From a virus (lineage: Duplodnaviria; Heunggongvirae; Uroviricota; Caudoviricetes): DNA of 49,446 nt. Where the stretch lies: the IMG/VR virus record IMGVR_UViG_2563366799_000006; one strand, written 5' to 3'. Below are positions 5,970 to 11,014 of this stretch, in pieces. The position numbers and the translations under genes are program-made. The notes beneath the pieces are model-generated. The model was not told where the DNA came from. It searched no databases and saw only the letters and a program-made list of their open reading frames with translations. Positions within the stretch are counted from its first letter, which is position 1. Every line of letters begins with the position of its first letter.

Positions 5970-6219
5970 GGTCTTTTCGGCTCTCGCTGCGATATCCCAG
6001 GCGGTACATTTTCACGTAGGCTTTGCCGCGAGGAATGCCGCCTGTTTTGTTGAATCTCTGCTGGGCGCGGCGATGGTGTTTTGCTTCAGGGCTGTTTGAA
6101 CCTTTCCCGCCATTCGATCGAGAACTTGGGAGTTGCATTGGCTTTTGGCGTGAATAGAATTTACGTGCCCAGCATGCTCCAAAGCCGATCATGCCTGTTT
6201 TCTTCGTATTACCTTTCAT
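5950..6219 (-). CDS. Small basic protein, first ORF downstream of the putative PL (N-like antiterminator candidate by position only)
   Basis: 89-aa ORF, GAGGGG RBS, Arg/Lys-rich; lies about 70 nt downstream of the predicted PL start. Confidence 0.4.
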   Translation of the reverse strand: MKGNTKKTGMIGFGACWARKFYSRQKPMQLPSSRSNGGKGSNSPEAKHHRRAQQRFNKTGGIPRGKAYVKMYRLGYRSESRKDLMRATQ

Positions 6220-6298
6220 CTCAATCCCCTCGTTTGCCCTTGTCGCCAGGCCAGCGGAACGTTTGAACTTGATGCGCTTAGTGTTTCTCGATGGGGTG

Positions 6299-6340
6299 AT
6301 GATAGCTAAGGCGATTTATTTTATCAATCGCTTAAACGAT
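6299..6340 (-). promoter_or_regulatory. Putative PL promoter with overlapping OL operator
   Basis: Minus strand reads TTGATA (6322-6327), 17-nt spacer, TATCAT (6299-6304); palindrome ATCGC-TTAA-ACGAT at 6327-6340 matches the OR operator consensus ATCGC-N4-GCGAT. Confidence 0.45.
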
Positions 6341-6663
6341 AATATTGTGATTTTGCCGATTATTATTTGATTTATAAAGTGATTTATTTTTGTATGAGAT
6401 GCGTGATATGCTCAAAAAAACACCAGGCGGGGATATTGATATGGGTTTAGGAATGGATATGTCACGTGATGAGCTGCTGGAAGATCGCGCTGCTTTCATG
6501 GCTGGCGAGATTGGCGGTGCAGTTGTCGAGTAGATAATCAACGGTGTGGTGATAAGTCGAGATGCGATAGTAGATAGCTTGGAGACTAAGCGTCGCGCGG
6601 TTGGAAATGTGATTCACAAAGGAGTGTTGTGGGATGTCACTGCTATGGTGAGAAAAGGAATAT

Positions 6664-6686
6664 GAAAACCGGCATAATGCCGGTTT
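6664..6686 (-). terminator. Hairpin terminator at the end of the cI operon
   Basis: Inverted repeat AACCGGCA-taa-TGCCGGTT followed by a T-rich run on the minus strand, overlapping the stop of 6685..7317. Confidence 0.45.
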
Positions 6687-7317
6687 ACTTTGATTTTTCC
6701 TGTTGGTGAAGTACTCGTGGAGTAGTTGGTTCTTGAGGTAATTGGATGATAACAGGTTGCTGCGCTACTGGTTGAACTACGGGCGGATCACTCTTCAAGG
6801 CAGAAACAAGACTAGGTAATGCAACGACAACCGCAATGATAACGCCAAAAATAGCAAGCCTAGTGGAAATACCTGATTGAATACCGCCAATCGCAGTGTT
6901 TATTCCTGTAATTTGCCCTTGTATACCTTCGAATTTGCCATTGATGGCTTTTACATCCCCATCAACGCTATCCATTTTCCCTTCAATTTTAGAAGAAATA
7001 GAGCTAATAGATGAATTGAGCGATGCCAGCTGAACGTTCATATTCTCGCGTGACAAAGCCATTTCAGCTCTAATCGAAGATGCAATGGACTCCATCTCCG
7101 CCTTATTGGCAGCTAGAAGTGCTTGCATTTCTTCACGGCTAACTGATGACATTTCATTTCCCCCATCAGTTTCATTAGCTTCATCTGTTGATTTGATAAA
7201 GTTAGTATACATTTCTTCTTTATCGACGCGTAGTCTGTTTTGAACATTGGGGTACAGGTCATCTTTATCAATGCCAGAACCGCAGTCTGGGACAGCTTTG
7301 AGAGATGGGCCCATCAC
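6685..7317 (-). CDS. Coiled-coil protein with a single C-terminal transmembrane helix (rexB/sieB position, no recognised family)
   Basis: 210-aa ORF; long heptad-like Ser/Ile/Gly-rich region then hydrophobic segment LAIFGVIIAVVVALPSLVSAL; start overlaps the stop of 7314..7700 (ATGA). Confidence 0.6.
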   Translation of the reverse strand: MMGPSLKAVPDCGSGIDKDDLYPNVQNRLRVDKEEMYTNFIKSTDEANETDGGNEMSSVSREEMQALLAANKAEMESIASSIRAEMALSRENMNVQLASLNSSISSISSKIEGKMDSVDGDVKAINGKFEGIQGQITGINTAIGGIQSGISTRLAIFGVIIAVVVALPSLVSALKSDPPVVQPVAQQPVIIQLPQEPTTPRVLHQQEKSK

Positions 7318-7700
7318 TTCCCATCCTCTCCTTGATCTTCTTTTCTTTTATTAATCAGTGTCCTGGCTTTTTTATAAGAAAAAAGCAGTACATGTGCGCA
7401 GTGATCACACGTGATTCGAAATAGTGGCATACCGCCAGGATATGTCACAGCACTATCAGTATCAGGTTTGTATTGTGCATAACTAAGTGTTTCGATCACA
7501 TGATGTTTTGGCTGATTTTCTTCTACATCAAGATCAAAGGCACCAACTACAGACCATGACTGGTTCCCGCAGATTTGGCAAGTTATTGGTTTTTTGAATG
7601 AATTTATGAAATCAATGAACTCATCCGCTGTGATAATCTCGGAGTTTGCTTCACTATGAAATAATTCCGATTTCATAATTATGATCCTTTTCTGGGCCAA
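7314..7700 (-). CDS. Zinc-ribbon-like protein (CQIC...CDHC), first gene downstream of cI (rexA position, no recognised family)
   Basis: ORF-track 128 aa; likely start is the ATG at 7674-7676 (120 aa) with AAGGA RBS; 20 bp downstream of the cI stop, same strand. Confidence 0.6.
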   Translation of the reverse strand: MAQKRIIIMKSELFHSEANSEIITADEFIDFINSFKKPITCQICGNQSWSVVGAFDLDVEENQPKHHVIETLSYAQYKPDTDSAVTYPGGMPLFRITCDHCAHVLLFSYKKARTLINKRKEDQGEDGK

Positions 7701-7720
7701 AGTAGATAAAAAGTACAGTT

Positions 7721-8404
7721 TTACAATCGGTTATACTTTATTGATTCATGAATCAATGCCTTACCCATTACGTAGAGTTGATCCTGATTACCTTCGTTAA
7801 TGTACCACTTCTCATAAGCTGAGTTATCAGACAAAACTGCCAACCTATCGCCCTGCATCTGCAAGCGCTTCACATGGAAATGTTGTCCGAAAACGAACGC
7901 ATAAACACCGTCGACCTTGAAGTTTCTTACAGAAATATCGAAAAACAATCTGTCACCAGACTGTATAGTTGGACACATGCTGTCGCCATCGACCGTCATT
8001 ACTTTTACGTCTTCCTGAGAACGATTTCCGAAGAGTGAACGAGCGTGTTCGGTTGTGAACTCAATGGCGTGTAGAACCTCAACAAACTCAGAAATCATGA
8101 AAGAACCTGGCCCCGCGCTAAATGTCAGGTCAAGTACGTCAACTCTGAATATGTTTGAGTCTTTTTTTGTCGCGGTAATGGGAGGCGGTAGCTGGCCATC
8201 GTTACGCATCGGTCCGGATCCCGTGGAAAGCCATTCAGGGCGAACATTGAGAACAGAAGCTATCTCGACCGTTTTTCTTGAGCTTGATGCACCATTTAGC
8301 AGCTTGTTAACACTTGACTGTGCCATGCCAACTGCCTTAGCTAGCTTGCCCTGTGTATAACCCGCCTCATTCATTGCGCGATCTAATCGCTCAGAAAAAC
8401 TCAT
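7721..8404 (-). CDS. cI: CI-type prophage repressor (XRE HTH + S24 LexA-like peptidase)
   Basis: 227 aa; N-terminal HTH (QGKLAKAVGMAQSSVNKL); Ala-Gly cleavage site (FSAGPG); Ser in GDSM and Lys in HVKRL; divergent from cro. Confidence 0.9.
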   Translation of the reverse strand: MSFSERLDRAMNEAGYTQGKLAKAVGMAQSSVNKLLNGASSSRKTVEIASVLNVRPEWLSTGSGPMRNDGQLPPPITATKKDSNIFRVDVLDLTFSAGPGSFMISEFVEVLHAIEFTTEHARSLFGNRSQEDVKVMTVDGDSMCPTIQSGDRLFFDISVRNFKVDGVYAFVFGQHFHVKRLQMQGDRLAVLSDNSAYEKWYINEGNQDQLYVMGKALIHESIKYNRL

Positions 8405-8437
8405 TAAAGATACCCCCTAATAACCTTCATAAATATT

Positions 8438-8506
8438 ATCGCCACAGCGATTAATAAGCAAAAAATCGCATAGGCGATTGACATTCGTTAAAGCGATAAA
8501 CATAAT
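8438..8506 (+). promoter_or_regulatory. OR operators and PR promoter
   Basis: Palindromes ATCGC-CACA-GCGAT (8438-8451) and ATCGC-ATAG-GCGAT (8466-8478); TTGACA at 8478-8483, 17-nt spacer, CATAAT at 8501-8506; AGGAG RBS and cro ATG follow. Confidence 0.6.
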
Positions 8507-8533
8507 CAACCTAAATTGATAGAAGGAGCGATT

Positions 8534-8764
8534 ATGAAAAACCCTGCTGTAGAAAAAGCGATTGCAATCGCCGGTAGTCAGAAAGAGCTAGCGAAGCGAT
8601 GTGGTAAGGCCCAATCCACGGTCTGTGACTGGTTAAATGGGAAAAAACAAATCTCCCCGATCCATGTTCCTGTTTTGGTAAAGGCAAGCGAAGGACAGAT
8701 TCAAGCTCATGAATTCCGTCCCGACCTTCCTGAATTGTTTCCGCATCCACATTCAGCCGCCTGA
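8534..8764 (+). CDS. cro: Cro-like HTH regulator (ORF track 8516..8764 uses an upstream TTG)
   Basis: ATG at 8534 with AGGAG RBS; HTH GSQKELAKRCGKAQSTVCDWLNGKK; divergent from cI. Confidence 0.75.
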   Translation: MKNPAVEKAIAIAGSQKELAKRCGKAQSTVCDWLNGKKQISPIHVPVLVKASEGQIQAHEFRPDLPELFPHPHSAA

Positions 8765-8795
8765 CCGGCGGCGCTAACCATCAAGGGAAAGCACT

Positions 8796-9071
8796 ATGCA
8801 ATCACTTACGTTTTACCAGGATACAGGATTGCCGCAGCAGGCGGTGATAAATCGTGCTCAAGCGTGCAAGGGACCTAGCCATGAAGATATTCGTGATGCC
8901 GTTCGCTCATGGGCGGGTGTAGATGGTCAGGATGTCGTTTCTGCTCTGATCATCGAAGAGTACCAGGCGCAGGGTGGTGATGACATCACTTTCCCTGATG
9001 ATCTCTGCCGAAAGCGCCAGAAGCTGTTTCGCTTCCTGGACAACCACTTCAACAGCGAGCGTTACCGCTAG
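8796..9071 (+). CDS. YdaT-like (cII-position) protein, N-terminal part ending at an in-frame amber codon
   Basis: 91-aa ORF ends at TAG 9069-9071; the same frame stays open to 9335; YdaT similarity is from memory. Confidence 0.5.
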   Translation: MQSLTFYQDTGLPQQAVINRAQACKGPSHEDIRDAVRSWAGVDGQDVVSALIIEEYQAQGGDDITFPDDLCRKRQKLFRFLDNHFNSERYR

Positions 9072-9152
9072 AACGTCCGCCAGCTGACTCCGGCAATCCT
9101 CGCTGTCCTGCCGATTGAATACCGCAATCGTCTGCTACCAGAAGACAACGTA

Positions 9153-9335
9153 ATGGCTCGTCTGGCAAGGCTGGAGAAGGAAACCAGCGAAGCGAAGATT
9201 GCTGTCGCAATGGATGCGCCACGTCATCAGAAGCTGAAAGAGTTGAGCGAGGGGATCGTGGAGATGTATCGCGTTGACCCTGGGTTAACCGGTCCGTTGA
9301 TGGAAATAGTGCAGATTATGCTGGGGGCTATATGA
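9153..9335 (+). CDS. Downstream part of the same reading frame as 8796..9071 (possible pseudogene fragment)
   Basis: Same frame as 8796..9071, separated by a single TAG; no convincing RBS before the ATG at 9153. Confidence 0.3.
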   Translation: MARLARLEKETSEAKIAVAMDAPRHQKLKELSEGIVEMYRVDPGLTGPLMEIVQIMLGAI

Positions 9336-9386
9336 CCGGTTCAAAAATGGCGAAAGCCGCGGTGCTCGAACACCAACGGCTTTCAG

Positions 9387-10328
9387 GTGCAAAAACAGTG
9401 CGTAATTGCGGAGAACAGTATGTCAAACACCGCTGAAATAATCAATTTCCCAAATAAAACCGAACAACCGGGAGGTCGTATGACCGACCTGTCGAACGGG
9501 TATACCAAGGTCGCTAACGAGATCCAACAGCTTAAGCCTCGCCTGAGACTGTCAGGCCGGGAATGGCAATGTTTTGAGGCGGTGATCTGGCTTACCTACG
9601 GCTGGAACAAGAAACAGGACCGCGTGACAAATACGGTTATTGCCGAGCTTACGGGCCTGAGCGATACGCATGTATCGGACGCGCTTAAGTCTCTCGCAGA
9701 ACGCAAAATCATCTTTTCACAGAAGCAGGGCATGATGAAAATCGTCGGTGTAAACACTGACCTTTCAGCATGGATTTTAGACAAACCGGAAACGGGAAGA
9801 AAATTCCCGAAAACGGGAAAATCCTTCCCGAAATCAGGAATAACCTTCCCGAAAACGGTAGACACCCAATACAAGAACAAGAACAGTATTAAAAGATCTT
9901 CGTCCGAGAATTCTGACGAATCCTCTGACGCACGTCTGAAGAAATTTTTATCAACTCATCCTGAAGCTGCGGTCTACACACCATCCGGTGCGAAGTGGGG
10001 CTCTGCTGAAGACCTCGAGACAGCTAAGTGGATTTCCTCCAGGGTGAAGCTGATTAACCCAACCTGCAAAGCCCCGGACATGACCTCCTGGTCTAACACT
10101 GTTCGCCTGATGCGCCAGATAGACAACCGGTCGCACCAGGACATCTGCGCGCTGTATGACTGGGCTAGCAAACACCACTTCTGGCAGACCAACATCCTGA
10201 GTCCCGAAAGCCTGCGTAAGCAGTGGGACAAGCTGACAATGCAGCGTAACGCCGGAGGTGAGCAGCGCGCTGTCAAGCCAGATCTGGACTTCAACAACAC
10301 TGACTGGGCCTATGGGGTGATCCGATGA
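9387..10328 (+). CDS. O: Replication initiation protein O (phage_rep_O family)
   Basis: 313 aa; GTG at 9387 or ATG at 9420; N-terminal motif REWQCFEAVIWLTYGW...LTGLSDTHVSDALKSL; ori iterons inside the gene; stop overlaps the P start. Confidence 0.85.
   Translation: MQKQCVIAENSMSNTAEIINFPNKTEQPGGRMTDLSNGYTKVANEIQQLKPRLRLSGREWQCFEAVIWLTYGWNKKQDRVTNTVIAELTGLSDTHVSDALKSLAERKIIFSQKQGMMKIVGVNTDLSAWILDKPETGRKFPKTGKSFPKSGITFPKTVDTQYKNKNSIKRSSSENSDESSDARLKKFLSTHPEAAVYTPSGAKWGSAEDLETAKWISSRVKLINPTCKAPDMTSWSNTVRLMRQIDNRSHQDICALYDWASKHHFWQTNILSPESLRKQWDKLTMQRNAGGEQRAVKPDLDFNNTDWAYGVIR
9786..9861. repeat. Origin-of-replication iterons (about four ~20-bp repeats, core TCCCGAAAACGGGA)
   Basis: Repeats at about 9786, 9805, 9825 and 9845, each with internal dyad TCCCG-N4-CGGGA, followed by an AT-rich stretch to about 9905; located inside O as in lambda. 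Confidence 0.6.
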
Positions 10329-11014
10329 AATCTCTTGCAGAGCAGATGCGTAACCACGACCGCGAGCAGATGAGCCGCATGGCCCATAACCTGCCAGAGC
10401 AGTACCAGGAGTGCGCGCCGGTCGAGCAGGTGGCGCAGGTATTCAACAAGCTGTTCAACGAGCTGCGCGCCGCGTTCCCGGCCAGCATGGCGAACTTCCG
10501 CACCCAGGAAGACCTGAACGAATTCCGCCGTCAGTGGCTGCTGGCGTTTCAGGAGAACGGGATCCACACCATGGCTCAGGTCGATGCCGGCATGCGCATT
10601 GCCCGCCGCCAGGAGCGCCCATTCCTGCCGTCGCCGGGCCAGTTCGTCGCCTGGTGCAAGCAGAGCGGCGGCGCGCTGGGCGTCAACGTTGACCAGGTGA
10701 TCGCCGAATACTGGGACTGGCGTAACCGCTCGTTCGAATTCATCTCCAGCGAGCAATTTCCATGGTCGCAGCCGGTCATGTACCACATTTGCGTAGAATT
10801 GCGCCACCGCAGCACCGAGCGCCAGTTAACGCATGGTGAACTGGCACGCGAGGCAGGCGATCTGCTGGACATGTGGGAAAGGCGCGTCACCGAGGGTAAG
10901 CCAGTGCCGCCGGTACGCCGGGCTATTGCCGCACCAGCTGCCGAGCAAGGGCCGACGCCGATCCAGCTGCTGCTGGCCAAGTACAACCGCAACAAGTCGA
11001 ACGGGATGGTGTGA
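10325..11014 (+). CDS. P: Replication protein P (helicase loader, lambda P-like)
   Basis: 229 aa; recalled similarity to lambda P (REQM.R.A.N.PEQY, VAQ, FPAS.AN, RRQW.LAF.ENGI.TM.QV.AGMR.ARRQ.RPFLPSPGQFVAWC). Confidence 0.9.
   Translation: MKSLAEQMRNHDREQMSRMAHNLPEQYQECAPVEQVAQVFNKLFNELRAAFPASMANFRTQEDLNEFRRQWLLAFQENGIHTMAQVDAGMRIARRQERPFLPSPGQFVAWCKQSGGALGVNVDQVIAEYWDWRNRSFEFISSEQFPWSQPVMYHICVELRHRSTERQLTHGELAREAGDLLDMWERRVTEGKPVPPVRRAIAAPAAEQGPTPIQLLLAKYNRNKSNGMV

Follow-up and report, generated by a model that had tools for sequence, protein, structure and literature searches.

YdaT and CII-like activators of lambdoid prophages

The YdaT proteins of the cryptic prophages CP-933P and Rac are the only members of their family shown by experiment to form tetramers, bind an inverted-repeat operator and activate a leftward establishment promoter (PMC9986795, PMC11879457). 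YdaT is functionally equivalent to lambda CII and activates the leftward establishment promoter; CII itself is dispensable after lysogeny has been established (PMC9986795). YdaS and YdaT have been argued to be Cro- and CII-like regulators and not a toxin-antitoxin pair (PMC5917428, PMC11879457). Operator binding by the CP-933P protein requires oligomerisation through helix 6, and its fragment 1–96, with a complete POU domain, folds as a monomer and fails to bind the operator (PMC9986795). Proline mutants of helix 6 in Rac YdaT have likewise lost oligomerisation (PMC11879457).

Here, we describe a relative of these proteins in a 49,446 nt stretch of prophage DNA (hereafter, the window). As in CP-933P and Rac, the gene lies between a YdaS-type cro, which it directly follows, and the replication genes. 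Its product also resembles YdaT of both prophages in having a significant Pfam match to the family and a predicted POU-like helix-turn-helix (HTH) followed by a long helix. It differs from them in sharing ~30% identity and in its length (179 aa compared with ~141 aa), with the subfamily to which it belongs having 25 disordered residues at the N-terminus and two more helices at the C-terminus. These differences from the studied YdaT proteins concern the family, and not the finding reported below, namely that, unlike in CP-933P and Rac, the gene in the window is interrupted by an amber codon.

The CII-like activator of phage mEp237 (YP_007111414.1; PHROG 163) belongs to the same 179-aa subfamily, and the C-terminal halves of the two proteins are nearly identical. 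The gene order of repressor, cro, CII-like gene, O, P and ren is shared with mEp237 and with a RefSeq family of “toxin YdaT domain-containing proteins” found in Enterobacteriaceae prophages. In mEp237 and in the RefSeq family, however, the genes are intact and encode a glutamate at residue 92, the position of the TAG in the window. A point nonsense mutation in a lysogeny-establishment activator encoded between cro and O also recalls the amber mutants of lambda cII, and, as in those mutants, prophage maintenance is expected not to need the lost function (PMC9986795). The protein families are nevertheless unrelated in sequence. Furthermore, the mutation in the window is natural and is carried by a resident prophage instead of having been selected in the laboratory, and its phenotype is only predicted.

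The immunity region of the prophage

The locus is the immunity region of a lambdoid E. coli prophage. A CI-type prophage repressor of the LexA family is encoded at 7721–8404 on the minus strand, with Pfam HTH_3 and Peptidase_S24 domains, and its counterpart in E. coli MSB1_9D is annotated as “LexA family transcriptional regulator”. A pR-like promoter candidate, recognised by consensus match only (TTGACA-17-CATAAT, 11 of 12 positions), lies at 8478–8506 on the plus strand, upstream of cro. The Cro-like gene (8534–8764, plus strand) encodes a 76-aa protein of the YdaS family (Pfam YdaS_toxin, 53.9 bits, together with HTH_3), the relatives of which carry the annotation “transcriptional regulator”. 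The next gene of the rightward operon after the interrupted one encodes an O-type replication initiator (9420–10328, plus strand; Pfam Phage_rep_O), and the O/P-type replication genes share 99.3–99.6% identity with those of phages phi80 and HK225. The interrupted gene is therefore found in the position typical of the YdaT family, which is directly 3′ of a YdaS-type cro, opposite a CI/RacR-type repressor, and followed by O and P.

Inverted repeats resembling operators (ATCGC-N4/5-GCGAT) are present at 8438–8452, 8464–8478 and 8557–8572. Two of them flank the pR-like promoter between the repressor gene and cro, while the third is found inside the start of cro. All three are probable CI/Cro operators for this immunity type. 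At the junction of cro and the ydaT-like gene, we found no convincing inverted repeat or reverse promoter that could be the target of the activator, the only repeats being the operator ones near pR. A minus-strand promoter-like match at 9344–9315 agrees with the consensus at 9 of 12 positions, which is not above the level of shuffled sequences. In contrast to CP-933P, no TTGATT-N6-AATCAA box was found near the gene; the window contains three matches to this box with two mismatches, against 2.3 expected. The 179-aa subfamily may have a recognition sequence different from the CP-933P box.

A 34-codon ORF (9332–9436, plus strand) starts with an ATG that shares bases with the TGA ending the ydaT-like gene (ATGA), and reaches into the beginning of the O gene. 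It is annotated by some gene callers, but not by RefSeq, and could be a translational-coupling ORF, or nothing.

A YdaT-family gene interrupted by a single amber codon

Translation of positions 8796–9335 (plus strand) gives 180 codons with a single internal stop, TAG at 9069–9071, and a terminal TGA at 9333–9335. The ORF listing presents this region as two ORFs in one shared frame, 8796–9071 (91 aa) and 9153–9335 (60 aa). An earlier reading of the window from its sequence alone (the sequence-only reading) had described the frame as free of stops apart from this TAG. Our translation agrees, although the joined product, given there as 180 aa, is 179 aa long (91 + 1 + 87). The geometry of the ORFs is in itself at chance level, as the window contains 16 adjacent pairs of stop-free stretches, each of at least 85 codons. 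The case for a split gene consequently rests on homology.

Codons 1–91 of the YdaT-family/CII-like gene (8796–9068, plus strand) encode the disordered N-terminus, helices 1–3 and the first turn of helix 4. In the helix map of the structural model described below, the predicted recognition helix falls within helices 1–3 and so within these codons. The amber codon (9069–9071, plus strand) takes the place of a GAG codon for Glu92 through a G>T transversion at 9069. Beyond it, codons 93–179 and the TGA (9072–9335, plus strand) encode the remainder of helix 4, helix 5 and three C-terminal helices, and no further disabling changes were seen here in alignments with relatives. The 60-aa ORF (9153–9335, plus strand), which has been called as a gene of its own, starts at what is the internal Met120 of the intact protein. 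It has been deposited as a hypothetical protein of E. coli KTE108 (EOW21263.1).

The resemblance to YdaT, which the sequence-only reading had proposed, is borne out by both sequence and predicted structure. The joined protein matches Pfam PF06254 (YdaT_toxin) with 88.5 bits (cut-off 21) over residues 67–154, across the stop, and this match holds with any residue placed at position 92. It also matches PHROG 163 (CII-like transcriptional activator) over all of its 168 positions (1–168; E = 1.6e-54). Taken separately, the 91-aa piece covers positions 1–76 of this profile and the 60-aa piece positions 109–168. Searches with phmmer gave matches to the solved YdaT structures 8bt1 and 3c4r, in which the Glu92 codon is aligned with a YdaT glutamate.

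An AlphaFold model was obtained for an intact relative that is 94% identical to the window protein, and is of moderate confidence (mean pLDDT 75, pTM 0.50). In this model of the relative (P0001), residues 1–25 are disordered and helices are predicted at residues 29–43, 45–58, 70–82, 88–104, 107–110, 119–138, 143–160 and 162–178. The first five form a POU-like HTH (29–110), which is followed by the long helix 119–138. A Foldseek search with the same model returned 3c4r and 8bt1 as the sole good PDB matches (probability 1.00, TM (target) 0.60–0.65). Apart from the stop, the sequence comparisons confirm the split gene as a full-length member of the YdaT/CII-like family. Its frame, which would be uninterrupted in a functional member of that family, is broken, and the window copy is a nonsense allele.

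Intact relatives encode glutamate at the amber position

In E. coli prophages, the corresponding slot is filled by intact genes of 540 nt, annotated as “toxin YdaT domain-containing protein”. The plaque-forming phage mEp237 likewise has an intact counterpart in this slot, annotated as “CII-like transcriptional activator”, with GAG/GAA at the codon in question. In DNA alignments, all four of the four intact E. coli alleles carry GAG or GAA at the TAG of the window, which answers the question, raised by the sequence-only reading, of what codon the TAG replaces. Position 92 is a glutamate in 37 of 38 sampled relatives and an asparagine in the remaining one, and it is the sole residue private to the window when compared with these 38. 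The family as a whole comprises 717 clusters from Escherichia, Citrobacter, Salmonella, Klebsiella, Enterobacter and other genera, with full-length top matches of 178–180 aa.

Over stretches that include the amber position, two intact sequences differ from the window at that position only. Between positions 7000 and 9107, the sole difference between the window and E. coli MSB1_9D is at 9069. A human-gut metagenome contig, found by a DNA pattern scan of metagenomes, is identical to window positions 6086–9300 (3,215 nt) except for a G at 9069. The exact Glu92 protein has moreover been recorded on 503 contigs. Together, these observations indicate that the lesion is one G>T change on a background that is still circulating intact.

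Among the possibilities raised by the sequence-only reading, a nonsense-inactivated pseudogene is best supported by the intact 540-nt homologues with GAG/GAA at the TAG. We estimate a probability of about 0.85 that a recent and real G>T change (GAG, Glu92, to TAG) truncates a CII-equivalent YdaT-family factor and leaves the gene functionally null. It is a nonsense allele of a known and annotated family, at a known position and with a known kind of consequence, and is in this sense an ordinary loss-of-function mutation.

The 3′ half of the ydaT-like gene contains a mosaic patch (9108–9317) with 22 differences from MSB1_9D, in which the window matches the mEp237/2022CK-00450 type instead. From 9318 to 10788, the window is again nearly identical to MSB1_9D. 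The boundary of the patch places a recombination junction ~40 nt downstream of the amber codon. A 215-aa predicted protein from a Logan assembly (P0123), whose N-terminus is identical to window codons 1–91, shares 101 N-terminal residues, with Glu at position 92, and then continues in unrelated sequence. A chimeric assembly or a rearranged prophage is its probable source.

Predicted consequences of the truncation

The proposed course of events would begin with the G>T change at 9069, turning Glu92 into an amber codon in the 179-aa gene that follows cro. The 91-residue product would retain helices 1–3 of the POU-like HTH, and would lose the larger part of helix 4 together with helix 5 and every C-terminal helix. 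According to the model, the stop falls in helix 4 (88–104) of the predicted DNA-binding domain, and helix 119–138 is taken, by its position, to be the oligomerisation helix. Such a product would be unable to oligomerise or to bind its operator. Given that the published YdaT(1–96), a milder truncation, fails to bind, the 91-aa product should be inactive and should not bind DNA.

A CII-type activator would be needed for establishing lysogeny and not for maintaining it, so that the mutation would be free of cost to the lysogen and would be inherited clonally. In turn, the phage that such a lysogen releases would lysogenise poorly, like the clear-plaque mutants of lambda cII. Nonsense mutants of lambda cII are classical clear-plaque mutants. 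With a CII equivalent that is dispensable in the lysogen, the mutation is probably neutral for prophage maintenance and probably impairs, or even cripples, the establishment of lysogeny by released phage, in agreement with its strictly clonal distribution. The O/P genes could also be affected by nonsense polarity, as ~350 nt would be left untranslated before O at 9420.

Expression beyond the amber codon

The allele could instead be leaky, with functional protein made by readthrough, either by an amber-suppressor tRNA of the host or because the weak UAG-A is decoded by a near-cognate tRNA. Full-length protein made in this way would probably have Gln, Tyr or Lys at position 92. The 87 downstream codons are undamaged and contain no other private substitution, and the base after the stop is an A, which in E. 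coli termination is a weaker context than U. Undamaged downstream codons are, however, equally expected of a very recent mutation, given that all copies are identical. ARAGORN found no tRNA genes in the window, and TAG is the terminator of at least six other called genes in it, which would make general suppression costly. Strong amber suppressors are also rare in natural E. coli isolates. Finally, the stop is absent from all relatives, with GAG/GAA in the four E. coli alleles and in mEp237, and hence there is no conserved recoding site of the kind expected for programmed readthrough. We therefore regard functional expression by readthrough as unlikely. Other forms of decoding were considered and rejected. 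Reassignment of TAG is rejected given its use as an ordinary terminator in the window, and ARAGORN found no phage-borne suppressor tRNA there. Decoding as pyrrolysine or selenocysteine was dismissed, this being the wrong organism group and the stop not being conserved.

The first canonical in-frame start past the stop is the ATG at 9153, 81 nt downstream, which corresponds to the conserved internal Met120. The sequence-only reading had seen no convincing ribosome-binding site here, and this proved correct. The region upstream of this ATG pairs with the 3′-end of 16S rRNA at −1.0 kcal/mol, which is the second weakest of 51 window starts tested, and its Shine-Dalgarno pairing is weaker than that of 71% of all ATGs in the window. 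With Shine-Dalgarno pairing essentially absent, ATG 9153 was rejected as an independent start. Taken together, the lack of a tRNA gene in the window, the normal use of TAG as a terminator, the unconserved stop and the weak ATG at 9153 leave programmed readthrough and separate C-terminal expression unsupported. Expression of the truncated product, or low-level suppression, is possible but has no positive support.

Distribution and origin of the amber allele

The N-terminal amber product has been recorded on 28 and 39 contigs (91-aa and 80-aa start calls, respectively), and the C-terminal 60-aa product on 69 contigs. The truncated products are indexed in 46 and 64 blocks, with ~67–69 contigs on record. 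E. coli KTE108 (EOW21262.1/EOW21263.1) and GCA_005384705.1 are among the carriers of the amber allele, as are many metagenome and SRA assemblies, with several submitters represented among those from ENA and Logan. The six amber loci that we fetched all have a T at 9069 and are 100% identical to the window over 3.3–19 kb. Judging from these identical loci in separate assemblies, the amber allele is real and has a single recent clonal origin. Its spread to ~67–69 contigs fits neutrality in a successful clone, and could also be due to selection.

Selection is central to a further explanation, in which the split is adaptive. The amber allele would then represent a selected “domestication”, through loss of a toxic, host-regulon-rewiring CII-like factor or through a new role for a fragment. 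For example, the 60-aa helical C-terminal piece or the 91-aa HTH piece could be dominant-negative against the YdaT-family proteins of co-resident or superinfecting phages. If true, this would be of benefit to an E. coli clone whose prophage is otherwise intact, and could explain the presence of the allele in dozens of samples. Rac YdaT is indeed toxic on expression and rewires the host RcsA regulon (PMC11879457), and the C-terminal ORF aligns with the last third of the PHROG 163 profile. The allele is also present in many samples, but all copies are one clonal sequence with a single origin, recurrence was not seen, and the intact allele is about seven times commoner (503 versus ~67–69 contigs). 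In lambdoid phages generally, a gene in this position is repressed in the lysogen anyway. The C-terminal piece is moreover unlikely to be made, since its ATG lies well past the stop without a ribosome-binding site. On balance, we consider an adaptive split quite improbable, and the same applies to domestication in either form.

Sequencing error was another explanation offered by the sequence-only reading, and we find a sequencing or assembly error, with GAG as the true codon and an intact gene, highly improbable. In its favour, the window differs from intact alleles by a single base, and the TAG-bearing sequence was found in none of 5,426 complete E. coli RefSeq genomes and in no GTDB species representative or IMG/VR contig. 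Against this, the exact truncated products have been called in the NCBI isolate assemblies of KTE108 and GCA_005384705.1 and in many independent ENA and Logan assemblies, and the T is found in every locus fetched, each a perfect match to the window. The error explanation was rejected because independent assemblies, from isolates and from metagenomes, carry the identical allele.

A natural two-gene arrangement, in which homologues stop at codon 91 and are followed by a separate small gene (the counter-case named by the sequence-only reading), is almost certainly incorrect, for although gene callers give two hypothetical proteins, EOW21262.1 and EOW21263.1, the full-length relatives are all single proteins of 178–180 aa, and one Pfam domain and one PHROG profile both span the stop.

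Implications for annotation and prophage decay

EOW21262.1 and EOW21263.1 should be combined into a single entry marked as a nonsense-disrupted YdaT-family/CII-like pseudogene. The nonsense allele illustrates cleanly, in a natural setting, how prophage decay begins, with one base changed in an otherwise intact 49-kb prophage. The gene that was hit serves horizontal spread alone, through the establishment of lysogeny, and its exact intact ancestor still circulates. Carriers of the amber allele and their Glu92 counterparts constitute a ready isogenic pair for studying the uncharacterised 179-aa YdaT subfamily.

Other features of the prophage

On reading the sequence, we noticed several close copies of a TCCCGAAAACGG(G/T)A-like motif at window positions 9770–9860, within the O-type gene. 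These copies look like origin iterons inside the initiator gene, as in the lambda ori. The start of the window corresponds to position 1173 of the sequence L009, ~8 nt short of the annotated 3′-end of the prophage integrase gene (L009 1–1180). The integrase gene is thus almost wholly outside the window, and the left end of the prophage and its attachment site are absent from it. The early-left region is Rac-like, with RecE/Exonuc_VIII, RecT, YdaE and KilR, while the capsid module is of the P22 type and the tail includes a lambda J-type host-specificity protein.
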